Made by a program: the position numbers and the translations under genes. DNA of 15,264 nt. It comes from Selaginella moellendorffii (lineage: Eukaryota; Plantae; Lycopodiophyta). Location of the stretch: assembly GCF_000143415.4 (NCBI RefSeq), contig NW_003314528.1:1-15264 (forward strand), given 5' to 3'. Shown here one piece after another: positions 1 through 15,264 of this stretch; positions within the stretch are counted from its first letter, which is position 1; each line of letters opens with the position of its first letter. The notes under the pieces are model-generated. The model did not search any database, had not been told where the DNA came from, and saw only the letters and a program-made list of their open reading frames with translations.

Positions 1-220
1 AAGGAGTTTTAAAGAGGGGCGGGAAGACGGCAGGTCCAGCCAGTCAGGCTCTATAGACTTGAAACCTCAGAACTGTGTTGACATTTTCAGTGAAGGTGCA
101 TTGGATTTGATGGATTTGATAGATATTCATAAACCAACTATTCCAGCTTGCAGGGATTAGGAACTCTCTAACTGCTTCTAGCTTGTTCAGCTCTCCTGAG
201 ATTCGGCAGATATTAGTCAC

Positions 221-412
221 CTACAAGGCAGCATTCCTCTCAGCTTTCCGAGCATACTTCTGTTAAACTCCAACAAACTGGGAGGCCATCTTCTCGGGTG
301 AGCCTTCCAAAAATTTCAGCTCCAATGCGACCAACAACAGGTTTGAAGGCAGTGTTCCATCAAGGAACTTTAGCAGCAACCAAACAAGTTGTCTGGGAAG
401 CTACCAACTCAA
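221..412 (+). pseudogene. Degenerate plant LRR (receptor-like) gene fragments
   Basis: Manual translation in shifting frames gives LQGSIPLSF, LLNSNKLGG, NNRFEGSVP and LSGKLP, which fit the plant extracellular LRR consensus LxxNxLxGxIP. They are broken by stops and frameshifts; boundaries are approximate. Confidence 0.5.
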
Positions 413-769
413 TGTGAACCACTGTACCAACACCAATATGAGAATTGAAGAAACTCTTTGCGTCGAGTCCTTGTTATTGATCATGATTGGGTTCAATGGT
501 TGACTCTTCCCCATGGCCTGGTTCAATTAAAGTTTGCATTGTTAGTGCAAAATGGTCCTGGGATCCAAACTTTCAGCCAGCTGGAGGGATGGATGCTGTT
601 GGAAAATGGTTGGACAGGCAGGACCTTCTACACCGGTGCCAGGTGCTCTACCAGTGAGCTACCTGCCTTGGTTGTGTGCATGTTCAGCTTAGTTCTAACA
701 GATGCTGCCATTTACTCTATTTTATGAGCTCTCAACACAGGAGTAATCCAGCTTTCCCTACCTAAGAGC

Positions 770-955
770 AAAAAATCGATCGGGGTAGCACCCCTGGTAC
801 AAGGGTTGCTAGTGGCATATATGTTTTCAATACAGACAATATCAGAAAATGAATATAAAAAATCAAAATGGTCGAGACGAGCATTTTTCCAAAATAAATT
901 GCCACCGTATGCAACTTGTTACCCTGCACCCTTGCAACCGTGCCTGATCGTTTTT
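770..955. repeat. Degenerate inverted repeat, possible old MITE
   Basis: The left arm (aaaaaatcgatcggg...ggtacaagggttgctagtggcatatatgtttt) loosely matches the reverse complement of the right arm (aaaaacgatcagg...gggtaacaagttgcatacggtggcaatttatttt), around an AT-rich core. No TSD identified. Confidence 0.3.
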
Positions 956-1103
956 CAGGCCTAGGCTCTCCAGCTTCGGTCCGCTCATTCTATCAAGGGC
1001 TGCAATCTCTACGTTTGCAACACTGGAGCTGATATTTGTTTTTGTGCTGAGACTGGGCATTGTTCCCGCATTTTACCGGTGAATCTTCGCAAAGCAAGCC
1101 ACT

Positions 1104-1153
1104 ATCTAATGCCAATTTGGCATTAGATGTCCTTTGGCATTGCCAAAGGACAT
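1104..1153. repeat. Two abutting perfect palindromes upstream of the Pin-II gene
   Basis: atctaatgccaa-t-ttggcattagat (1104-1128, 12-bp arms) and atgtcctttggca-t-tgccaaaggacat (1127-1153, 13-bp arms). Confidence 0.9.
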
Positions 1154-1294
1154 TCAGCTCGCCCGTCACATCCGTGGTGAGAGGGCTTATCTTACTGCAT
1201 TAAGATATCCATTGTGTCAAGGACACACGTTTTGAACATTTCTAAAGCACCAATGCTGGACTTCAAAAGCCCATCAGATCTGCAATAGAGAAGT

Positions 1295-2133
1295 ATGGCT
1301 GGAAGCGGCAATCTCCCCGTGCTCGTTCTTCTTCTGTTGGCCTCGTTATCCTGTGAGAGAGATCTCCACTTGTATGTTCGATTCTAACTCGGACTCCTGT
1401 TCTTGCAGCTGCTCAAGGTGGTGTCGTCGAGGTTTGCAATGGTGACCTCACCTATACCGATTGCAGCAACTGCTGTAGTCTGAAGAAAGGTTGTGTCTAT
1501 CTGCAACCTGGTTCAGGACAAGTCACTTGCATTGGCGGTGATTCAAGGGCTTGTACCCGGGAGTGCCAAGGTCCGAAGTTGGCCGTATGCCCATTGCCTT
1601 CATCAGGATTCCCAACATCAGGCATCAAGGTGCTCAAGGGAAAACTCCCACCCCGACAACCTGGATGCGGTTACTACAACATCGTTAACGGTGACCCCAT
1701 CCCGCGGCTGGAGCAGCAGGGCACAGATCAAGGTAACCGCCTTGTTCATTATGTTCAGGAAGCTCAGCCCTCTCCGATAGAGCTCATGGCAGGAAGGAAG
1801 TGTAAGCTTGATTCGATTGTGGAGGTCTGCAATGCCGAGGTCTCCAAAGATAACTGTGGTTGCTGCTTCGGGAAATCCGGTTGCATCTACTTGGAGAATC
1901 CATCCGCAAACAGCACCTGCCTGCCTACTGAAGACCCCATGGGGGTTTGCGCCCTCGTTTGCCTGCCCAGAGTGTCCATTTGTACCAAGTCTGTAACTTT
2001 TCAGGGCACCACCCTGCAGTCTTGCAGGAATGCACGCCGCAGCTGCGAGGACATGAAAGAGGGCTGCAGTCTCTACGATCGCAACACCGGAGCTGATCTC
2101 TGCGCTGCAGGGGGTATCGCTCTGCCTGTCTAG
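1295..2133 (+). CDS. Secreted multi-repeat potato type II (Pin-II / I20-like) serine proteinase inhibitor; exons 1295-1352 and 1409-2133 (~260 aa)
   Basis: ATG at 1295 starts a signal peptide (MAGSGNLPVLVLLLLASLS). A phase-1 intron 1353-1408 (GTGAGA...TTCTAAC...TTGCAG, 56 nt) joins in frame to the 1579-2133 ORF. The product has CSNCCSLKKGCVY...TC...RACTREC...AVCP and a second repeat NCGCCFGKSGCIY...TC...VCALVC...SIC, matching the Pin-II pattern CTNCCxxxxGCxY...KACTREC. An intron right after the signal peptide is typical of Pin-II genes. Confidence 0.8.
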
Positions 2134-2149
2134 TCTAGTTGCTGAAACT

Positions 2150-3275
2150 AGTTATGGGCATTACTATTATGAATGAATAAGGAATGTCCCTCCTTGGAGG
2201 GGCCGGTGTCAATGTCCGAAGTTACTCGCCATGCAATTTGTGATGGAGTGTAGGAGAAATATTGTATCTTCCTCTGGATCGATAGGAAAGTAGGGCAGGT
2301 CCTTGAAGAAACCGATTCTTTGAGGTTGGGCTGGAAAAGTATCTTGGTCGCCAGCATCGACGTCAAATAGAGGCGCAAGAACGAGCAGGTCTTTTGTGAA
2401 TTTAGAAGTACAATGGGAACACAACATGAATCAGAATAAAGTAAGAAAGCAAGAAAGAAATTCTGGCTTAGATCACATTTTCTCCAATTATAATTTAACA
2501 AAGATTAAGCAAAGAGAAGGCTGCACTATGTCTGACACTGGCTGTGGACAATACAAGGAGATTGAAGCGATTGGATTCTGAAATTGTCCCCCGTGTCGAC
2601 GTTAAGTTAACAGTCGTACTATGGAGGAGAAATGTTGAAGAGGTGTGGTGAGAAACCATGCGGACAGTAATATTCAGGATTAGAGCATTCTCCCAGACCC
2701 TTTTGTATGTGCACTTAGACATGTTGATAATTGTAATAATCTGCTTGCTAGTGATTTTTGCCGGGTTTGTGGACGATTTCGAAGTTGTATTCTTGTAGTA
2801 AAAGGAACCATCTTGATATTCGACCAGATAATCGGCTTGTTGATGGCTGGAGCTAGAATCCATTGTCCTTGAGCCAAGTGGCTATGTCGTTGCTGGGAAG
2901 CCTAGGAATATGGTGTGTGACGTATCTGAGGTGCCAGGGTGGATGAGCTGGCATCTTTCTCTTCAGATCAAAGTGCTTGCCCTGTTAGGGTTCTTGAGAC
3001 CCGTAACTGTTGGTAGGCTGATCATGTGGCGCTCGATTGCTGGTGATAAATGGTAGAGATTTGTTGACCGAATTGATTTGGTTTGACTTGGCTTGATTGA
3101 AGATCAATGGTGGATATTGCTGATGAAGTTAACTCAAGTTCAACTGTTGATATCTGCTGAGGTGGTGTTGATCCAACGGTAGCTTGGAACTTATAGATTT
3201 TTGCTACTGTTTGTTGCTGAAGTTGGTGGATGAGTTCGTGTTGAGTCGAGTTGAGTTGCGTCTAACTGGGTTGAG
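2150..3275 (-). pseudogene. Decayed sequence 3' of the minus-strand Gypsy integrase, possibly an accessory ORF remnant
   Basis: Several broken minus-strand ORFs (2209-2427, 2495-2863) lie co-oriented downstream of the integrase remnant. No domain recognised. Confidence 0.25.
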
Positions 3276-4341
3276 TTAAAGTTTGGCTACCGGTGATTGT
3301 CGATTGTTGGTTTCAAGGTGTTTGTCGGTTCTGGTTGGAAATTTGCTGAGGTGCTGATGCTGAACAACGTGATATGGTCGAAGCTTGTTGAGGTTGACGA
3401 TCTCAGTGAAGTCTTCAGCGAGTGTGCTGACTTTGACAGTGCCATTGGGGTAGAGTGCAATGATTTTGAAAGGTCCTTTCCAGTTGGTGTGGAGTTTCCG
3501 GCCGAGTTTGCCGATGGGTCCCTGGTACCAGAGAATATGATCGTTGACGTTGTATTTCAGGGGGTTCCAAATGTATAGTAGGGATAGTGGGTAGTTCGGG
3601 CATGGTTGACCAACCTGAGGCATAGTCTCACTCTTGCTTGTGTGCCTATTTTTGTTCTGCGTCCAACTTATGTCTAAGCCCAAGTTCCATTCCATGTTAG
3701 TTGGTGGAATACCCATATCCTTGCGTTATGCCACCGGTATGCTGAAATAGTGCCAGACTCCATTTGGCTCCATTTTGTGTGTTCGTCTTAGCATAGGGAT
3801 GCTGGATACTCTAGAACTGTTCCAAGTCATTCCGTGCTTTTATCCCTTCACTCCTTGGGCTGTATGCTCGGGAGTCGTTCTGTACTCCAGTGCCATTGCT
3901 CCTTGGTTCCATGTTTGGGAGTTTGGCTGATGGGTCCTTGGTACTAGAGAACATGATCGTTGATGCTGTATTTCGGAATGTTGTGCCGGGATGCTTGTCG
4001 ATCATGCTGAGCTTTTTGCTGTTTTTGGATGGTGTGAAGTGTCTAGAGGGCGTTGGGTTGAAGCTCGTCAAGACATTCGAGTTGTTGAAGCCTTTCTCAA
4101 ATTGCATGTTGAGATTATACTTGACGGTGACTCGCATGCTCGGGACGATGAATTCAATTGGCGTGATGGCTTCTGTTCCAAAGGCGAGTTTTAATGGCAT
4201 CATGTCGGTGGTGACTTTATACGCAGTTCGATAGGCCCAAAGTACGTCAAGAAGTTTTTCATCCTAGTCTTTGCCGGAATCATTGATGACTTTCTTGAGG
4301 ATGGTCTTCAATGTTTTGTTTGTTGCTTTTGCTTGACCATT
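3276..4341 (-). pseudogene. Non-chromovirus (Athila/Tat-like) Ty3/Gypsy integrase remnant
   Basis: Minus strand reads NGQAKATNKTLKTILKK...D*DEKLLDVLWAYRTAYKVTT...LAFGTEAITPIEF (end of the integrase core) and KLHTNWKGPFKI...VNLNKLRPYH (GPF module). It has stops, frameshifts and an internal insert at ~3558-3927. Confidence 0.85.
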
Positions 4342-4806
4342 TGTAGCGCATGTGATTTTTACCCTTTATCCTATGGTGCTTTACCATAGGATAACCACAG
4401 AAGCAGAATTTAAACCCTCTAAACCCTCCATGTGTGACATGTCATGTGCCACGTGTCACATGCCATGTGTCTAAAGGATAGTTGTGTGGAACCCAAATTT
4501 CAAGGCCTTAGGCCATTAAATGAAGGAATGGTGCCAAACTTCCAAACATGGAACCAAGGAGCAATGGCACTGGAGTACGGAACGACTCCTAAGCATACAA
4601 CCCAAGGAGTGAAGGGATAAGAGCACAAAATGATTTGGAACAGTTCTAGAGTATCCAACATCCCTATGCTAGGACCAGCATACAAAACGGAGCCAAATGG
4701 AGTTTGGTGCTATTTCAGCATACCGGTGGCATAACGCAAGGATATGGGTATTCCACCAATTAGCATGGAATGGAACTTGGGCTTAGACCCAAGCCAGACG
4801 CAGAAC
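3654..4806. repeat. ~274-bp inverted repeat pair (3654-3927 / 4533-4806), ~605-bp spacer
   Basis: 4533-4806 (gccaaacttccaaacatggaaccaaggagc...gacgcagaac) is the reverse complement of 3654-3927, with scattered substitutions. Confidence 0.92.
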
Positions 4807-5682
4807 CTCCCTTAGTACCAAGAGTTAGTCTCTGGGACAAGTCAATAAGCTATCATCCAGTGATATTGAGGGATTAGTCTCAATATACGTGTAAGCGACT
4901 AATTTTTCCATTTTACTTTAGTCACTTAACCACACCTCCGACCACTTGGAGGAGTCTCATTCACAACCTCCATAAATCCCAGTTAGGACTTGGGGCTTGC
5001 TAGCCCCGAGAATGGCATCCATGCCACTCAACCTTTGCACTTGGTCTAAGTGCTCCACGTGTCCGATCCCATGACCGACACCCCAAGGTACCACCGACAT
5101 ATCGGCCCGTTACGCTAAGGCCATGCCCATTCACCTTGGTCACCCCGGTGGTTCAACACCACCTGTATTACAATCCCGTCTCTCAAAGACTAGGCCATCC
5201 ATCCATGAGTGGCTATCCCAGATCCACTCTATAGCATCCTTAGGATGTCTGCAGACATGGGGAATAGCCTTTCCCAATATCTCCTTTTCGGTCCCCACCA
5301 AGTCCCTTCCTGTCCATGGCCGTGTTCACCAACACTGCCACTGGATCAAGGCCCACAGGCCCAATGACTAAGTCCAACAGTCCTCTGGGACTTCCTCACG
5401 GTGTGACTGTGTCCCTTGTCACCATACTAGAGGGCTACTCCTCTTCCTTTCCATAGTCTGGGACTTTGGGGCAACATTTTGGAACACCGTGGCCCTACGC
5501 GAGCCTCGTGGGTACTCTCCTCGCCTTCTGCCTTTGGGTGCTCTAGCCATGGGTTTAGAGTGAGGTTCCGTTGAGCCACACCAGGTATCCAAGTAGGTAG
5601 TGCCACCCACACCTGGACTGGGAGCATCAGCCAGTCGATCTCCCGAGGGAACTAGAGCCGGCTCTTGAACACTTCACCAAGC
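4342..5682. mobile_element. Non-coding LTR-like block of another element, truncating the old integrase
   Basis: Integrase homology stops abruptly at NGQA and TGTAGCGC begins at 4342 (LTR-like TG start). The block has no convincing ORF. It contains a 12-bp IR (4366-4394), CACGTG/ACATGT palindrome clusters (4431-4470) and (TAAACCCTC)2. Its other end is not seen because the chromovirus LTR begins at 5683. Confidence 0.45.
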
Positions 5683-6698
5683 TGTAAGGAACCAACTCGC
5701 CGAGGTGTCGTAGGCTAAAGGAACCCCAAAAGCATGACCAAAATGACAAAGAGTTTATCGGATGGGACCAAGTCGAAGATTGAGTCCAAGACCGACTCGG
5801 AGACCGAGTTCGAGATAGAGTCCGAGATCGAGTCTGAGACCGAATCCGAAGTCGGATCCGAAATCGGGTCCGAGATCGAGCTAGAGACTAAGTCCAAATA
5901 CTAATACGGGTCAAAGGGTGAAAGCCCAAAGCGTGCGTCTCCCAAGGGGGGGGGCGGGGGGGGGTGGGGGGGGGCTGCAGGGGGTTCCAAAAGTATAGTA
6001 GGGATAGTGAGGTCCAGGAACCAGTTTTGAAGGGACTCTCCAGTTGGGCTTCCAAACCGACTTGAGGTTGAGACTGGGACCGAGGGGCCTTGGGTGGGAG
6101 TGAGCATGGACTTGGCTGGTGCCGGAGGGGCCATCCAAGGAAGTGCTCAAGAGCAGCTCCCACTCCCGAAAGGGAAACCAATTGCGGTGCTCCCGGCTCA
6201 CGTGGAGTGGTGCCCCACTTGAGTACCATGCGGCTCATTGGTCCTTGCCCTTCCTAGGGGCTTGGACCTTCCTTCGGGATGGAAGTGGGGGGGTAGAGGT
6301 ACCCATACCGGGCTGCTAGGCCATGGTGTTCCGCCCTGGCGTCCCGAAGCAAGTGTTGCACTCAAGACTTGGGATTTAGAGGGTCCCATGATCAAGTCTT
6401 GTGGTACCAAGGGATGTTAGGAACCTGGAAGCTTGGTGTGCTTGGCTGCTTGTGCTTGCGGGGAGTGTAGCCGAACCTTAAGTCCAGTCTAACCCGGGGA
6501 GGGGGATTGGGAGTGATTTGGGAATCCGTGGATGGATGGCTAACACTCCGTTGCTCGTGCAGTGAGTAGCTAAAACTAAGTAGGAGCTGGTACCATAGGC
6601 GAGAACCTTGGCAAGGGAACTTAGCAAAAGCCAAGGCAGTGTTGGACGGATAGTCAAGGTAAGCTGGCAAATTGGAAAGGAAAAATTTGTGGCTTACA
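5683..6698 (+). repeat. 5' LTR of the older (outer) chromovirus copy, 1016 bp
   Basis: TGTAAG...CTTACA termini; homologous to 7417-8501 and 14336-end; followed by a mutated PBS TAGTATCGGAGCC (6702-6714). Confidence 0.95.
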
Positions 6699-6757
6699 AT
6701 CTAGTATCGGAGCCCTTTCCTCAGTTCTAGCGAAGGATAGAGGCGGATTGCTGGGAG

Positions 6758-7416
6758 ATGGCAAGGGCAGGGCGTAAGCGAACCCAGGCGGAGATGGAAC
6801 CTCCACCAGAGCTGGAGCCTCCGGTCGAACAAAAGGCTATGGATGAGGAATCCTTGCATGAGGAGGACTCTAGTGAGGAAACTTCCAAGTAGGAGTCCGG
6901 TGGCGAAGTTCGGTCGTCCAAAGCTCGATTGGACGTTCTAGAAGGTCAATTGGCGCAGACCAATGCCCTGCTGGAGACTCTCGTACGCAAGCTAAAGCGT
7001 GACGAGAAGCGGAAGAAAAGGCGAAAGACTGCGGATGCTGGCAGCGCAGAAGGTGCGGACCCTTTGGCAGGGACTGAGGCAGAACCAAACAAGGTCGAAC
7101 AAACCGAAGTAGAATCAGTCCCTCAGGAAGTTCCCAAGTACAAACCAAAGCCCCCACCGGTCTTCAAGGGAGTGAATGACTATAAGGTGGTGGAGGATTG
7201 GTTTTACGATATGGAGGACTACTTCCGAGCGTTGCGATTACAAAGCTCGGAGAAGGTCCCATGTGCAAAACCATACTTGGCAGATAATGCCAAGTCTTGG
7301 TGGAGAACGACGAAGGCCAACGAAGGACCAGTGGCCACTTGGGACATGATGAAGGCGAGGATCCGCGCAACATACGTTCCTCCGAATGCCACTCTACATC
7401 TGAGAGATGAGCTGAG
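6758..7416 (+). pseudogene. gag: 5' part of gag of the outer copy, interrupted by the inner element
   Basis: Near-identical to 8561-9219. In-frame TAG at 6890 (CAG in the inner copy). Ends at ...LRDELS where the LTR starts at 7417. Confidence 0.93.
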
Positions 7417-8501
7417 TGTAAGGAACCAACTCGCCGAGGTGTCATAGGCTAAAGGAACCCCGAAAACATGACCAAAATGACAAAGAGTTCATCGGATGGG
7501 ACCAAGTCGAAGATCGAGTCCAAGACCGACTCTAGGACCGAGTTCGAGATAGAGTCCGGAATCGAGTCCGAGACCGACTCGGGGGCCAAGTTCGAGTCCG
7601 AGTTCGAGACCGAGTTCGAGTCCGAGATCGGGTCCGAGATCGAGTCCGGAATCGAGTCCGAACTCGAATCCGAAGTCAGATCCGAAATCGGGTCCGAGAT
7701 CGAGCCAGAGACTAAGTCCAAATACTAATACGGGTCAAGGGGTGACCCAAAGCGTGCGTCTCCCAGGGGGGGGGGGGCTGCAGGGGGTTCCAAAAGTATA
7801 GTAGGGATAGTGAGGTCCAGGAACCAGTTTTGAAGGGACTCTCCAGTTGGGCTTCCAAACTGACTTGAGGTTGGGACTGGGACCGAGGGGCCTTGGGTGG
7901 GAGTGAGCATGGACTTGGCTGGTGCCGGAGGGGCCATCCAAGGAAGTGCTCAAGAGCAGCTCCCACTCCCGAAAGGGAAACCGATTGCGGTGCTCCCGGC
8001 TCATGTGGAGTGGTGCCCCACTTGAGTACCATGCGGCTCATTGGTCCTCGCCCTTCCTAGGGGCTTGGGCCTTCCTTCGGGATGGAAGTGAGGGGCGAGA
8101 GGTACCCATACCGGGCCGCTAGGCCACAGTGTTTCGCCCCGGCGTCCCGAAGCAAGTGTTGCACTCAAGACTTGGGATTTAGAGGGTCCCATGATCAAGT
8201 CTTGTGGTACCAAGGGATGTTAGGAACCTGGAAGCTTGGTGTGCTTGGCTGCTTGTGCTTGCGGGGAGTGAAGCCGAACCTTAAGTCCAGTCTAACCCGG
8301 GGAGGGGGATTGGGAGTGATTTGGGAATCCATAGATGGATGGCTAACACTCCGTTGCTCGTGCAGTAAGTAGCTGAGACCAAGTAGGAGCTGGTACCATA
8401 GGTGAGAACCTTGGCAAGGGAACTTAGCAAAGGCCAAGGCGGTGTTGGACGGATAGACGAGGTAAGCTGGCAAATTGGAAAGGAAAAATTTGTGGCTTAC
8501 A
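7417..8501 (+). repeat. 5' LTR of the inner element, 1085 bp
   Basis: TGTAAG...CTTACA termini. Roughly 9 substitutions and a few indels relative to the 3' LTR over the ~920 bp comparable (counted by eye). Confidence 0.97.
7505..7720 (+). repeat. CpG-rich 6/12-bp tandem array (GAGTCC/GAGATC-like) inside the LTR
   Basis: Repeated cgagtccgagat units; also at ~14424-14640. The copy in the outer LTR (~5770-5895) is 90 bp shorter. Confidence 0.9.
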
Positions 8502-8504
8502 ATT

Positions 8505-8517
8505 TGGTATCGGAGCC
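8505..8517 (+). promoter_or_regulatory. Primer binding site, initiator tRNA-Met type
   Basis: TGGTATCGGAGCC, 3 nt after the LTR; one A>G difference from the canonical plant TGGTATCAGAGC. Confidence 0.92.
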
Positions 8518-11362
8518 TTTTCCTCAGTTCTAGCGAAGGATAGAGGCGGATTGCTGGGAGATGGCAAGGGCAGGGCGTAAGCGAACCCAGGCGGAGACGG
8601 AACCTCCGCCAGAGCTGGAGCCTCCGGTCGAACAAGAGGCTATGGATGAGGAATCCTTGCATGAGGAGGACTCCAGTGAGGAAACTTCCAAACAGGAGTT
8701 CGGTGGCGAGGTTCGGTCGTCCAAAGCTCGATTGGACGTTCTAGAAGGTCAATCGGCACAGACCAATGCCCTGCTGGAGACTCTCGTACGCAAGCTAAAG
8801 CGTGACGAGAAGCGGAAGAAAAGGCGAAAGACTGCGGATGCTGGCAGCGCAGAAGGTGCGGACCCTTCGGCAGGGACTGAGGCAAAACCAGACAAGGTCG
8901 AACAGACTGAAGTGGAATCAGTCCCTCAGGCAGTTCCCAAGTACAAACCAAAGCCCCCACCGGTCTTCAAGGGAGTGAATGACTATAAGGTGGTGGAGGA
9001 TTGGTTTTACGATATGGAGGACTACTTCCGAGCGTTGCGGTTACCGAGCTCGGAGAAGGTCCCATGTGCAAAACCATACTTGGCAGATAATGCCAAGTCT
9101 TGGTGGAGAACAACGGAGGCCAACGAAGGACCGGTGGTCACTTGGGACATGATGAAGGCGAGGATCCGCGCAACATATGTTCCTCCGAATGCCACTCTGC
9201 ATCTGAGGGATGAACTGAGTAGGCTGAAGCAGACTGGAACCATCCAGGAATATGTGAATGGGTTCATGGCAAAGAGGATACTTGTCACGGACATGGGGGA
9301 TATGGATGCGTTCCATGCCTTCATATCAGGTTTGCAAACCTGGGCTCGCGGTGAGGTGATGCGCTGGAACCCGACCAACTACAAGGAAGCGTTGGATGCG
9401 GCCATCAAGGTGCATTTCAACGATAACCTGCGAAAGGGGAACATGACGGGGTCGGGATCCACGTTTAGCAAAGGGGCCAAACCAAGAGGAACGTATAGCA
9501 GAGGGAAATTCAAGAAGAGTTTCTCTAAGAATGAGTCCTCGGGGTTCCGGAAAGGCAAATCCGGTGGCCAATGAGTGAGTACGTGGGGGAGTCAAGCGAA
9601 AAGAGACAAACCCACGGATAAGAAGGTTAAATCATATAGCAACGTGGGAAACAACGTATGCTACAACTGCGGTGAAGCGGGACACTTCTCGAGGGAATGT
9701 CCCTACCCGAAGAAGGCCAGAGCCAATATGGCCATCAAGTCGGGTGAAGTCCAAACTGAGGTATGTGATCCAGTCCTTAACTCAAAGTTACTCATTACAC
9801 GAGCAACTTTGGTAGAGAGTCGTTCGCGACATCTACTAGCCCTCCGAGGGAAGCTCGAAGGTAGCTTTGTTAAGATCCTTATTGACACGGGTGCTTCGGA
9901 TAATTTTGTGGCTGCAGACATAGTCCGGCAAGCCGGACTAACGGTGCAGCGGCTAGGCGAACCAAGGACTATAGAGTTTGTTCAAGGTAGCCAAAGCACC
10001 GATGAGGTACTTCGACAAGCGAGAGTCGAAGTAGGGACATGGAAAGTAGACATGGATTTCACCGTGTTGGACATGGCGGGATTTGACGTGATCTTCGGAA
10101 TGGATTGGTTCAATCGGTTCGTGGTAGCCCTACATGGACAAGGTAGGAACCTTGTGGTATTGGCGAATGCCCAAGGAAGAAGATCCAGGGTGGAGGCCTA
10201 GGATCTAAAGGTAGGGCAATGCAAGGCTAAAGATTCATGCCTGAACCTGGTGTCCACAAGAGGACAACTCACTAAAGGTACCAAGGCTACATTTTTGTGC
10301 TTACTCTCGGTGAGAAGTGACAAAAAGACAGGAACAGAAGAAGTACCTTTAGTGATCCAGCGGGTGTTGGACCAATTCCAGGATACCATGCCGGAGGAGC
10401 TACCGGCATGGTTGCCCCCCGCACGACCGATAGAACATAAGATTGAGCTGGTCGAGGGTGCTGAGGCGGTGGTTCGTCCACCCTATCGATTGAACGAAAA
10501 AGAACTTGCAGAGCTCAAGCGCCAACTAGAGGAGTTGGTGGACAAAGGGTATGTTAGGTTGAGCAAGTCGCCATATGGGGCGCCGGTGCTATTTGTGAAA
10601 AAGAAAGATGAATCTATGCGCATGTGCATAGACTACCGGTTGCTCAACAAGTATACCAAGAAGAACAAGTACCCTTTGCCAAGGATTGAGGACCTCTTCG
10701 ATAGGTTGGGAAAGGCAAAATACTTCTCGAGGATTGACCTAAGGTCAGGATACTACCAGATCAGGGTAGCCAAGGAAGATGTCGAGAAGACAACCTGTCG
10801 AACGAGGTATGGGAGCTTTGAGTTTTTGGTGATGCCCTTTGGGCTGTGCAATGCGCCGGCAACGTTTTCGGCGTTGATGAACCACATCTTTGTACCCTAT
10901 CTGGATCACTTCGTGGTCGTCTATATTGACGACATCCTGATCTATAGCGAGACGCTAGAGGAGCATGCCGAACACTTGGCGAAGGTGTTTGAGAAACTAA
11001 GGGAATATAAACTGTATGCTAAAGAGAGCAAATGTGACTTTGCTCAACAAGAGGTAAAGTTTCTCGGGCATGTGGTGGGCCAGGACGGGCTCAAGGTGGA
11101 CCCGGAGAAGGTCTAAGCGATCCAGGAATGGGAGCGACCATCGAATGTACATGAGTTGAGGGCGTTCTTGGGGCTATGCAACTACTATCGAAAGTTTATC
11201 AGACACTATTCGAGAGTAGCCCTGCCCTTAACGGATCAAACGGGAAAAGGGAAGATGGTATGGACAGCGGAATGCGAGGCGGCATTCGTCCACCTCAAAG
11301 GGAAGTTGAGGAAGGCTCCGGTGTTGGCATTACCAGACTTTGGTAAGGACTTTGAGGTAGAC

Positions 11363-11957
11363 TGTAAGCAACCAAAGGGAACGACTCGAGAGACGATCCA
11401 TAGGGGTTCAAATATAGAGGGAAAGGGCCCATGAACAAGAGTGCACCCCCTTTTCCAATCGGTTAAGGGTCTTGGGATACTTGGGGTTAAGCGTCCTTGG
11501 GTTTGAATAGTACTGGGCTGGTTGACCTCCCGGGAAGTCCAAATTCAGGAGCTTACATTTGGTATCGGAGCGGTCTCGGGTCCGACTCTGTTGGTTGGCT
11601 AGGGGAATCACACCACATGTTGATTGACATCTGGTTGGTCCAGTTTACTCCCGCTGGGCTCGACCCGAGGGGTAGGGTGTCAAGAGAGCGAGGCTCTCGG
11701 GAGAGCTGCGGCTCTCAGCTTCCGTTCACGAGGGCGTGAACTTGCAGGGAAGCGTGGTGGATTGTAAGCAACCAAAGGGAACGACTCGAGAGACGATCCA
11801 TAGGGGTTCAAATATAGAGGGAAAGGGCCCATGAACAAGAGTGCACCCCCTTTTCCAATCGGTTAAGGGTCTTGGGATACTTGGGGTTAAGCGTCCTTGG
11901 GTTTGAATAGTACTGGGCTGGTTGACCTCCCGGGAAGTCCAAATTCAGGAGCTTACA
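11363..11957 (+). mobile_element. Cassandra-type TRIM (non-autonomous LTR retrotransposon with 5S rRNA-derived LTRs), 595 bp
   Basis: Two identical 195-bp LTRs (11363-11557, 11763-11957; TGTAAG...CTTACA), PBS TGGTATCGGAGC (11560-11571), 205-bp non-coding interior, PPT-like tract, and a perfect 5-bp TSD TAGAC (11358-11362, 11958-11962). Confidence 0.96.
11486..11540 (+). promoter_or_regulatory. 5S rRNA-derived internal Pol III promoter segment (A box to C box) in the TRIM 5' LTR; second copy at 11886-11940
   Basis: GTTAAGCGTCCTTGGGTTTGAATAGTACTGGGCTGGTTGACCTCCCGGGAAGTCC aligns without gaps at 46/55 positions to the plant 5S rRNA segment as I recall it (GTTAAGCGTGCTTGGGCGAGAGTAGTACTAGGATGGGTGACCTCCTGGGAAGTCC). 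Confidence 0.92.
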
Positions 11958-13034
11958 TAGACACGGATGCTTCGGACTTTGCGTTGGGCGTAGTTTTGAA
12001 GCAAGACAACCATCCAGTAGCGTTCTTCTCGAAGAAGCTGGACAAGGCTCAACGGAAGTGGCCTGCCCACGAGAAGGAATTGTTTGCGGTGGTCAAGGCG
12101 CTCAAGGAGTGGCGACACTACCTTGGGAGACACTTCAAGGTTTACACGGACAATGTGGCAACGAAACACTTCTTGTCACAACCCGACCTGAGAGGGAAAC
12201 AAGGTCGGTGGGCCAATGCCTTGGCCGAGTTTGATTGCGAGATTCTGTACAAGCCTGGGAAGAGCAACATCGTGGCAGATGCGCTAAGTCAAAAAGCAAG
12301 CTTGAGGTTGGCGATCTCCAGTGCAACAGCAACCTTCTGGGACGATGTGCGGACAGCATATGAGAACGATGGTCTAGCACAAGAAGTGTTGTTGAGGAAT
12401 CTGGAGGCGCGGGAAGCTCACCAGAGAGGTGAGCTGCCAACGGAAGAGAAAACGGGCTATGCGGAACGCAACGGACTCATTTATTACAAGCAAACGAGGG
12501 TGTATGTTCCAGAAGGGGGACTAAGGAAGGTAGCCTTAGAAGAGTGTCATGACGGACCTCTTGCGGGACACGGTGGAGTGCCCAAGACGATGGGCTTACT
12601 CAAGAGGAAGTACCATTGGCCAGATATGGCTAAGGACGTCCAAGACTATGTAAAGACATGTCCAACATGTCAGCAGGTCAAAGCCGTGACTAAGGCTAGT
12701 GGGGGCTTGTTGCAAAGCATCCCAATTCCAGATCGTCCGTGGAAATGTCTCACGATGGACTTCATCACGGGACTACCCCCAAGTGAGGGGTTCGATGCGA
12801 TATTCGTGGTGGTGGACCGATTTTCAAAGATGGCACATTTCATACCCACCACAACGGACGTGGATGCGGAAGGTGTGGCGAAGCTGTTCTTCGAACAAGT
12901 GGTTCGAGTGCGGGGAAGGCCAGAAGAGATTATCTCAGATCGAGATAAGATCTTCACTAGTAGGTTCTGGAGGACACTCCTGGAACAGTATCGCACCAAG
13001 TTGAAATTCAGCACCACCTATCACCCACAGACAG

Positions 13035-13081
13035 GTAATGGGTATTAAGTCAAGATTGATGGCACTAACACTTCTTGACAG
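13035..13081 (+). other. Predicted spliceosomal intron 1 in the integrase core (47 nt, phase 1)
   Basis: CAG|GTAATG...CACTAAC...TTGACAG|AT. Removal gives CAC CCA CAG ACA GAT GGA CAA ACG GAA AGG = HPQTDGQTER. Confidence 0.88.
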
Positions 13082-13499
13082 ATGGACAAACGGAAAGGGT
13101 GAATAGGCAGCTGGAGGATTATTTGCGATACTATGTCTCGGGAGACCAGACCGACTGGGTAAGTCATTTGGGACTTGCGGAAATGTGTTATAACAACTCA
13201 CCACATTCGAGCATCGGGGTGAGTCCATGGGAAGTCATCAATGGGCGAGCTATTGAAGGTCTTGTGGAACTCGGCGTGGCCGAGTATCATGGAGAGCTAC
13301 CCGCCGTGGAGACATTCACGGCGGAAAGACTCAACATTTGGAATTTAGTGAGGGATTCCTTGGAACGGGCTCAACAAAGGCAAACTAAGTACGCGAACCA
13401 AAAGCGTCGGGATGTGGAGTTCCAAGCTGGGGAGAAGGTGTGGCTGAACACCAAGAACCTCAGGCTACCAAGTGGGATCAGCCGAAAGTTGACCCAAAG

Positions 13500-13550
13500 G
13501 TAAAATGCATGTATTCCTGTAAATGAATTGATCTTGAGTTCCTTAAGCAG
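13500..13550 (+). other. Predicted spliceosomal intron 2 before the GPY motif (51 nt, phase 2)
   Basis: AAG|GTAAAA...TTAAGCAG|GT, AT-rich, with an in-frame TAA. Removal gives KLTQRFAGPY. Confidence 0.88.
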
Positions 13551-14027
13551 GTTCGCGGGGCCTTACGAGATTGAGGCACGAATCGGTAAAGTGGCTTACC
13601 GACTCCGACTTCCTCGAGAGATGGGGAAGATGCACCCAGTGTTCCACGTGAACTTACTCAAGCCGTACTTTGAGGATCTGCTTCGCAAGGACCAAGTAAG
13701 ACCTTTACCCGAGGTTATCCAAGGGGAAGAGGAATACGAAGTCGAGGCCATCCTCAATGTGCGCAAGAGCAAGCGACAAGGACGCGAGGTGAGAGAGTTC
13801 CATGTGAAGTGGAAAGGATTTCCACACTGCGAAGCAACATGGGAACCGGAGGAGAACCTAGCGAACGCGTGAGATCTAGTGGAGGAATTTCTGCAAGGCA
13901 GAACTCTATGTACTTATGCAAAGTTCAATTAAAAATATCAATTTGCAAAGTTGAGCAAGTGGCATGTGTTGGGACCCGAAGGCGCGCCGAAGGTAAGCTA
14001 ATTAGCATGGGTTAGCTAGGTCGACCA

Positions 14028-14192
14028 GGCGTAGGGAGCTACGCCCGACTCCCTGCGGGGATGTCGAATCCGTAGACGTATTCTACGGAGGTTGGGTTCG
14101 AGTCCCAACCCCCTAGTAAAACAAGGCTGGGTTCAAGTCCCGACCCTATACTAGGGCGTGGTGAGGTGAGGAGTATAGGGACACCTATATTC
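14028..14192 (+). other. Hairpin-dense 3' UTR domain with two tRNA T-arm / B-box-like motifs
   Basis: Consecutive stems at 14028-14045, 14046-14066, 14069-14089, 14090-14110 (loop TTCGAGT), 14111-14156 (inner loop TTCAAGT) and 14171-14192. Confidence 0.7.
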
Positions 14193-14294
14193 CGTTGTCA
14201 TGAGCTCTTGGCTGGGGAGGCTAACTTAGGCACACCGCTAAGTGGGGGGATGCCCCCGGAGACATGGTCAACAAGTCGTAGGATAAAACGAGAC

Positions 14295-14335
14295 GTTCGA
14301 TGTGGGCATCGAACTTCTTCTATGGGTGGTGGAGT
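14295..14335 (+). promoter_or_regulatory. Pre-PPT hairpin and polypurine tract
   Basis: gttcgatg-tggg-catcgaac hairpin, then GGGTGGTGGAG (14324-14334) directly before the 3' LTR. Confidence 0.85.
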
Positions 14336-15264
14336 TGTAAGGAACCAACTCGCCGAGGTGTCGTAGGCTAAAGGAACCCCGAAAACATGACCAAAATGAC
14401 AAAGAGTTCATCGGATGGGACCAAGTCGAAGATCGAGTCCAAGACCGACTCTAGGACCGAGTTCGAGATAGAGTCCGGAATCGAGTCCGAGACCGACTCG
14501 GGGGCCAAGTTCGAGTCCGAGTTCGAGACCGAGTTCGAGTCCGAGATCGGGTCCGAGATCGAGTCCGGAATCGAGTCCGAACCCGAATCCGAAGTCGGAT
14601 CTGAAATCGGGTCCGAGATCGAGCCAGAGACTAAGTCCAAATACTAATACGGGTCAAGGGGTGAAAGCCCAAAGCGTGCGTCTCCCAGGGGGGGGGGGCT
14701 GCAGGGGGTTCCAAAAGTATAGTAGGGATAGTGAGGTCCAGGAACCAGTTTTGAAGGGACTCTCCAGTTGGGCTTCCAAACCGACTTGAGGTTGGGACTG
14801 GGACCCTAAACCCTAAAACCGCCTTGGGTGGGAGTGAGCATGGACTTGGCTGGTGCCGGAGGGGCCATCCAAGGAAGTGCTCAAGAGCAGCTCCCACTCC
14901 CGAAAGGGAAACCGATTGCGGTGCTCCCGGCTCATGTGGAGTGGTGCCCCACTTGAGTACCATGCGGCTCATTGGTCCTCGCCCTTCCTAGGGGCTTGGG
15001 CCTTCCTTCGGGATGGAAGTGAGGGGCGAGAGGTACCCATACCGGGCCGCTAGGCCACGGTGTTTCGCCCCGGCGTCCCGAAGCAAGTGTTGCACTCAAG
15101 ACTTGGGATTTAGAGGGTCCCATGATCAAGTCTTGTGGTACCAAGGGAAGTTAGGAACCTGGAAGCTTGGTGTGCTTGGCTGCTTGTGCTTGCGGGGAGT
15201 GAAGCCGAACCTTAAGTCCAGTCTAACCTGGGGAGGGGGATTGGGAGTGATTTGGGAATCCGTA
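14336..15264 (+). repeat. 3' LTR of the inner element (cut by the window; about 168 bp missing)
   Basis: Starts TGTAAGGAACC after the PPT; colinear with 7417-8333. Confidence 0.97.
14804..14820 (+). repeat. Interstitial plant telomere repeat (CCCTAAA)2 in the 3' LTR only
   Basis: ggacc-CTAAACCCTAAAACC-gccttggg replaces ggacc-GAGGG-gccttggg, the form present in the other two LTR copies. Confidence 0.9.

Follow-up and report, generated by a model that had tools for sequence, protein, structure and literature searches.

Signals shared by a Cassandra-type element and its chromovirus host in Selaginella moellendorffii point to Galadriel-clade elements as its probable mobilisers

Terminal-repeat retrotransposons in miniature, or TRIMs, depend on Gag, reverse transcriptase (RT) and integrase supplied in trans (Kojima 2024, PMC10886601; Maiwald 2024, PMC10853983; statements on published work refer, here and below, to the available portions of each source). 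The origin of one such family, Cassandra, has been placed in the ancestor of ferns and angiosperms (Kojima 2024, PMC10886601), and no lycophyte appears among the Cassandra hosts in the available text of Maiwald 2024 (PMC10853983). An earlier note on the DNA described here held that the mobiliser of Cassandra is unsettled; in agreement with this, the available text of Kojima 2024 (PMC10886601) indicates no autonomous family, and the beet table of Maiwald 2026 gives no partner for Cassandra. We analysed a 15,264-nt stretch of Selaginella moellendorffii DNA (NCBI RefSeq assembly GCF_000143415.4, contig NW_003314528.1, positions 1 to 15,264, forward strand; hereafter the window), in which a Cassandra-type TRIM lies within a long terminal repeat (LTR) retrotransposon that matches the chromovirus SM1-Galahad. 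The signals shared by the two, as read from their sequences, point to chromoviruses, probably of the Galadriel/Galahad clade, and not to SM1-Galahad alone, as the source of the enzymes.

Other described TRIMs resemble this one in part. Helenus and Ajax also carry a small-RNA promoter in the LTR, and their partner superfamily was deduced from the primer-binding site (PBS) together with target-duplication length; however, Helenus is tRNA-derived, Ajax carries an animal 5S promoter, and Helenus-1_SMo (120/85 nt) is not the TRIM of the window (Kojima 2024, PMC10886601). SmoRetroS4, from the same species, has a Ty3/gypsy partner, SmoLTRA4, but it is 393 nt long, lacks 5S sequence and has a 104-nt LTR 98% identical to that of its partner; it is another family (Gao 2016, PMC4717578). 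The available text of that study names no S. moellendorffii Cassandra. The literature available to us (including Novikova 2010, Yin 2014, Yin 2015, Garcia 2024 and Weber 2013) names no Cassandra partner or lycophyte Cassandra and describes neither the hairpin nor the host introns reported here, a provisional result with Kalendar 2008, Maiwald 2021 and Repbase outside its scope.

The features of the TRIM and of its host, including the polypurine tract (PPT) that precedes each 3' LTR, are as follows.

11363..11957, + strand: Cassandra-type TRIM, 595 nt, in the RNase H (RH) region of the host; TAGAC duplication at 11358-11362 and 11958-11962
11363..11557, + strand: TRIM 5' LTR, 195 nt; TATA-like motif at 11413; sole run of four T (T4) at 11451-11454
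11467-11554, + strand: 5S-derived part of the TRIM 5' LTR; box A at 11485, box C at 11515
11560..11571, + strand: TRIM PBS, Met type; G at 11567, the minority form in the TRIM family
11724..11762, + strand: TRIM hairpin and purine tract; stem 7 bp, loop AGGG, the loop ending 28 nt short of the 3' LTR
11763..11957, + strand: TRIM 3' LTR, identical to the 5' LTR
7417..8501, + strand: host 5' LTR (LTR B), 1085 nt; poly-G tract; TATA-like motif at 7797
8561..13048, + strand: host gag-protease (PR)-RT-RH-integrase (INT) frame, 3885 nt without the TRIM; private stops in this copy
13555..13869, + strand: SH3-like part of the host integrase and chromodomain
14295..14335, + strand: host hairpin and purine tract; stem 8 bp, loop TGGG, the loop ending 29 nt short of the 3' LTR
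14336..15264, + strand: host 3' LTR (LTR C), incomplete at the window end

Judged by its sequence, the small element fits the published definition of Cassandra. It is non-coding, shorter than 1 kb, has TG..CA ends, a PBS, a PPT and a 5-nt target duplication (TAGAC), and its LTRs, identical at 195 of 195 positions, enclose 205 nt of internal sequence; the insertion site is empty in contigs from other host copies. Both LTRs contain a 5S-derived region with boxes A and C, and the Met PBS lies within 5-200 nt behind box C. The Rfam 5S model matched both LTRs with 35.1 bits (E 4e-4), under the gathering cut-off of 38. Boxes A and C are 18 nt apart. Against the published Cassandra query box A has one mismatch and box C two, of which one is private to this copy, 98% of the contig depth reading otherwise. 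Fern Cassandras (Kalendar 2020, PMC7215508; Maiwald 2024, PMC10853983) show the same 18-nt spacing, a hairpin before the PPT and T4 upstream of box A. Their Met PBS lies 8 nt behind the 5S part, against 5 nt behind the Rfam match in the TRIM, and the set of sizes (element/LTR/internal 595/195/205 nt here, 565-606/187-208/190-193 nt in ferns) fits three listed fern Cassandras, as does the hairpin. The TRIM differs from published Cassandras in its lycophyte host, in the box mismatches, in the 5S match below the Rfam cut-off and in its ends, TGTAAGC...GCTTACA, compared with TGTAACATCCC...GGGATGTGACA in pear. As its last 7 nt, when reverse-complemented, give its first 7, the two ends are not independent. 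The single T4 run, 30 nt upstream of box A, predicts a 19-nt terminal repeat, compared with 18 nt in Kojima 2024 (PMC10886601). The 5S boxes, the PBS and the sizes thus bear out the earlier description of the element as Cassandra-like. Purine tracts of legume Cassandras look similar to that of the TRIM (11744-11761), which may resemble, in the same sense, the 5' half of initiator Met tRNA, a likeness that the searches did not bear out.

The host frame, once the TRIM is removed, measures 3885 nt or 1295 codons, the value published for SM1-Galahad (Novikov 2012, PMC3350952). The layout of SM1-Galahad was matched as well: a poly-G LTR of more than 1 kb, a 13-nt Met PBS, a length of about 7.4-7.5 kb and a chromodomain in a separate downstream frame. 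The domain order Gag-PR-RT-RH-INT followed by a C-terminal chromodomain is that of chromoviruses. The host RT is at most 68% identical to any of the 120 proteins listed; in quick and FastTree trees (midpoint root, no named reference) it falls in a 99%-supported clade with locus L037 and a metagenome clade, and L037 matches the beet Galadriel element Beon1 in its integrase and PPT motifs. As the trees are without named references, the clade names given to loci below are labels from integrase and PPT motifs. In conclusion, the host matches SM1-Galahad, a Galadriel-clade chromovirus, on published dimensions rather than on consensus sequence, in line with the earlier view of it as Galadriel-like. 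SM1-Galahad was published as having no intact copy and split open reading frames (ORFs) (Novikov 2012, PMC3350952). The word 'intron' is absent from the available text of that paper, whereas the window host has four GT-AG stretches, described below, that would explain the split frames. Three stops of the window copy are private to it, 96-99% of the contig depth reading otherwise.

The ends of the two elements agree as first reported: the 5' ends are identical at 12 of 13 positions (17 control starts: 5-11 of 13) and both 3' ends read GCTTACA. The PPTs also share GTGGTGGA, located 1 nt (TRIM) and 2 nt (host) before the LTR. Two further claims stood in part. Both copies indeed read TGGTATCGGAGC at the PBS, a G variant present in both host copies of the window and in none of the 28 control loci with a PBS, but the usual A dominates the TRIM family: RNA reads have it 10 times out of 12 and 25 times out of 28, and it makes up 80% and 73% of the summed depth of contigs (G about 20-27%). 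Similarly, both hairpins are fully Watson-Crick paired (7 bp/AGGG and 8 bp/TGGG), each 21 nt before the 3' LTR, but they are not private to this pair. The LTR interiors, described earlier as unrelated, show a weak likeness. Local alignment under two lenient gap schemes beat 500/500 shuffles and 427/427 real control chunks; under two strict schemes the result was marginal (dinucleotide shuffles, 15/500 and 35/500; chunks, 3/427 and 14/427). What the interiors share is a TATA-like block (4/1000 shuffles). A 5S remnant in the host LTR was considered and rejected: the TRIM 5S part aligns with it no better than with shuffles (352/1000), and Rfam finds none.

Both families are high-copy and young. 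Contigs break off into mixed flanks at the TRIM ends, 109 at one and 105 at the other (agreement 0.36-0.38), so that the TRIM family must be large and its ends family-wide. With one copy dated for each, the TRIM LTRs differ at 0/195 positions (upper bound 1.5%) and the host LTRs at 9 positions in 911 nt, a telomere-repeat patch in LTR C excluded.

The hairpin before the PPT was followed in 77 related RT loci, taken from the best 80 of 578 matches. Among loci with at least 300 nt after the integrase end, it was found in 24/37, compared with 1/37 reverse-strand controls. When loop motifs were selected by sequence only, a stem of at least 6 bp was closed by 20 of the 28 that precede a purine tract, compared with 11/712 elsewhere; the p value of this stem test overstates the significance because related loci are not independent. 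Stem positions 2-7 show compensating changes with varied pair types. The module occurs in all three RT branches of the tree, and in published Cassandras of 8/9 genera (by eye), that of Arabidopsis being degenerate. Fragaria Cassandra has an AGGG loop, as in the TRIM, and the hairpin core of the Malus type is found in L073 and L088, of the Galadriel-like clade. The distance from loop end to LTR is 28 nt in the TRIM and 29 nt in the host; distances of 28-29 nt were otherwise seen only in L038, L051 and L103, all of the host RT clade. It is 24-27 nt in Tekay-like loci, save one hairpin-less hit at 22, and 24-25 nt in five angiosperm Cassandras (by eye). The PPT of beet Cassandra is nearest to that of Beon1 (10/12, compared with 5-7/12 for six other rows; Maiwald 2026, Weber 2013). 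Viral contigs gave no RT relative, 24 PBS-junction matches and 4 motif matches without tRNA. In L038 (10669, 11424) and L103 (2768, 3524), of the clade next to the host, the module occurs twice, after the chromodomain and before the LTR. The end of L084 is the pear-Cassandra-like GGGATGTGACA; together with the Malus-type core in L073 and L088, this suggests that seed-plant Cassandras may track more than one chromovirus clade.

The hairpin thus points to chromoviruses, and the ends and the loop spacing point to the Galahad group. The Met PBS together with a 5-nt duplication is consistent with Galadriel and rules out the patterns typical of Tcn1, Selgy, Tat and Athila, which leaves copia, Galadriel and unclassified chromoviruses; Tekay, Reina and CRM occur in seed plants only (Neumann 2019). 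The earlier note proposed that the host family, or a close relative, mobilises the TRIM. This is still the likeliest reading, but the signals mark a lineage rather than one family, since the module is present in three chromovirus branches and in a second local family (a contig of run X15, from the same organism, is common to the host over 14294-14338 and then enters a different LTR), since GCTTACA also ends LTR X of the window, a relative of the host LTR (score 81, shuffle maximum 43), and since the PBS variant is a minority form. The possibility, raised with the proposal, that unrelated families share these signals is therefore partly realised. We consider it rather probable, from the likeness of these signals, that the TRIM was moved by Galadriel-clade (Galahad) chromoviruses, the host being the best candidate without being singled out. 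Its candidacy is due to the LTR start (12/13), to the spacing of the hairpin and to the weak TATA block; its signals are the best among the controls seen, not unique. That SM1-Galahad itself mobilises the TRIM is possible but more doubtful, because SM2-Galahad, which is intact, and the family of LTR X lay outside the comparison. It is likely that the chromovirus branch as a whole supplies the enzymes for Cassandra-type elements.

Several observations weigh against this attribution. The evidence for a partner consists entirely of sequence likeness, and no mobilisation was observed. The PBS of most TRIM copies has the usual A, the 5' end of the unrelated Tekay-like L097 matches the TRIM at 11/13, and one of 28 controls, the Tekay-like L081, ends in GCTTACA. 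Taken as 63-nt pieces, the hairpin regions fold no better than shuffles (z -1.36, -1.31), and the fetched loci yielded no copia element, so that the hairpin controls are without Ty1/copia. The host copy in the window is broken. In run X24 the raw-read depth of host gag-pol is zero, and in X22 and X23 the depth of the host integrase region is mostly below 1.5, much of it apparently antisense, whereas TRIM RNA is present in these runs (X15-X20 are guessed to be RNA runs; X22-X24 are raw-read runs from a single study, each covered to about 12%).

The strongest alternative, which we hold unlikely, is that a chromovirus from outside the Galahad group (SM-Fogey, SM-Diluvium, SM-Cranky), or any active one, mobilises the TRIM, and that its likeness to SM1-Galahad reflects descent from a Galahad LTR rather than dependence today. 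A Met PBS is found in the three named families, two of which have been described as recently active (Novikov 2012, PMC3350952), the module is common to three chromovirus branches, and the weak likeness of the LTR interiors fits descent by deletion. A second 5S-bearing LTR-like end, GGGGTTTACA, is present in RNA reads, and generalist mobilisation, argued in the 2026 beet study (Maiwald 2026), also speaks for this alternative and against a dedicated partner. However, the 12/13 terminal match and the 28-29 nt spacing are best matched by the host clade, and old non-coding motifs, if unused, would be expected to drift. Mobilisation by a Ty1/copia family (Lyco, Ale etc.) appears improbable. A Met PBS with a 5-nt duplication is the norm for copia too (Neumann 2019), and the partners found for flowering-plant TRIMs are all copia, but the only reported S. 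moellendorffii TRIM partner is Ty3/gypsy (Gao 2016, PMC4717578), and the Cassandra hairpin closely matches the chromovirus module. Least probable is a local or accidental likeness, by chance and by exchange between the nested copy and its host: the motifs are short and chosen after the fact, and this TRIM copy, not most copies, has the G-variant PBS, but this explanation is largely refuted for the ends, which are family-wide (109 and 105 contigs), and for the hairpin, which is conserved far beyond the locus.

If Galadriel-clade chromoviruses do supply the enzymes, RNA polymerase III (Pol III) would transcribe the TRIM from its 5S promoter, beginning near 11436 and terminating at the T4 run of the 3' LTR, which would leave a repeat of about 19 nt. 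Chromovirus particles would take up this RNA, initiator Met tRNA would prime it, the hairpin would aid packaging or plus-strand priming, and the chromovirus integrase would read the TGTAAG...CTTACA ends and make the 5-nt duplication. LTR ends are what an integrase recognises, and copying of the tRNA primer yields the PBS. We propose that the TRIM retained its signals because these enzymes need them.

RNA reads support expression of the TRIM family. Raw reads on the TRIM are almost solely the first mate on the minus strand, which is sense in most stranded libraries, and they span both LTR-internal joints (6, 22 and 9 reads). Only five molecule ends fall at 11448, and the transcribing polymerase is predicted to be Pol III. 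The depth over the 5S stretch comes partly from other 5S-like transcripts. Reads over 11486-11543 / 11886-11943 include a second 5S-bearing sequence, perhaps of another Cassandra family, whose LTR-like end is GGGGTTTACA; a further 5S-like transcript, distinct from it, terminates in a T run.

The four GT-AG stretches of the host are the following.

8462..8527, + strand: stretch 1, 66 nt; spans the PBS (start 8505) and, before it, the final 40 nt of the LTR
9761..9917, + strand: stretch 2, 157 nt; spans the protease active-site motif
13035..13081, + strand: stretch 3, 47 nt, candidate intron; breaks the conserved integrase HPQTDGQTER motif
13500..13550, + strand: stretch 4, 51 nt, candidate intron; directly before the integrase GPY motif

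Contigs of X16, a guessed RNA run, skip exactly the 66 nt of stretch 1 and the 157 nt of stretch 2 (one contig each), and DNA contigs read through stretch 2. Removal of stretch 2 makes the frame stop after Gag (401 codons). Stretches 3 and 4 are AT-rich and contain stops, and the integrase motifs broken there are intact in those control loci in which the motif was identified. In both stretches the depth from other copies is normal, and relatives of about 86% identity also cover stretch 4; a one-base insertion in stretch 4 accounts for 39% of the depth, and one X15 contig retains stretch 3 unspliced. Without them the polyprotein would have about 1557 codons, near the 1577 of SM2-Galahad (Novikov 2012, PMC3350952). 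As candidate introns, stretches 3 and 4 would explain the published split integrase of SM1-Galahad. An AT-rich piece 3' of the chromodomain (13898-13950) is possibly another intron-like piece.

Copia-type elements make Gag-only spliced RNAs, splicing setting the Gag to Pol ratio. The Ogre intron acts on the same ratio (Neumann 2019). The host chromovirus differs from both in that one splice drops the protease site and another the PBS, and in that two candidates lie in the integrase. RNA lacking intron 1 would be unprimable, so that only unspliced RNA would be copied, and the host introns may persist for this reason.

A combined history can be drawn from these elements, although we regard it as doubtful when all its parts are taken jointly. 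Cassandra would have arisen once, before the lycophyte/fern split, from the LTR of a Galadriel-type chromovirus and a 5S promoter, and from then on would have relied on the enzymes of chromoviruses, with ends, PPT and hairpin spacing that follow the local chromoviruses in each plant lineage. The helper SM1-Galahad would keep its introns because intron 1 holds the primer site, and spliced RNA, translated but uncopied, would provide spare particles for the Pol III passenger.

The remainder of the window contains other nested and decayed elements.

5683..7416, + strand: older member of the host family, 4% diverged, made up of LTR A, a PBS that has the same G and a gag stub; element B-C nested inside
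5683-6698, + strand: LTR A, followed by the gag stub
4890..5682, - strand: LTR X, related to the host LTR but diverged, with the same GCTTACA end; used as an internal specificity control

LTR X is Galahad-like and disrupted by element A; with no PBS behind it, it is a solo or a 3' LTR. LTR C contains, at 14804-14819, two CCCTAAA units (the plant telomere repeat) that are not in LTR B, a pattern as after break repair. A 32-nt copy of the TATA-like block of the host LTR is found at 3558-3589, a decayed integrase-like remnant of a different Ty3 element at 3276-4263 (- strand), and a 274-nt inverted duplication at 3654-3927 / 4533-4806. A cysteine-rich single-exon frame at 1357-2133 has no Pfam match, and its three protein matches, one of them at 96% identity, are all from S. 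moellendorffii; its product may resemble potato type II protease inhibitors.

The hairpin-PPT module common to Cassandras and chromoviruses offers a concrete and cheap test across plant genomes. A lycophyte Cassandra would widen the known range past ferns and flowering plants, and it bears on the question of a single or multiple origin (Maiwald 2024, PMC10853983). The host introns, if true, would recast the description of SM1-Galahad, with no intact copy and split ORFs, as that of a spliced and potentially working family, and a PBS borne by an intron would be a simple reason for a retroelement to keep its introns.

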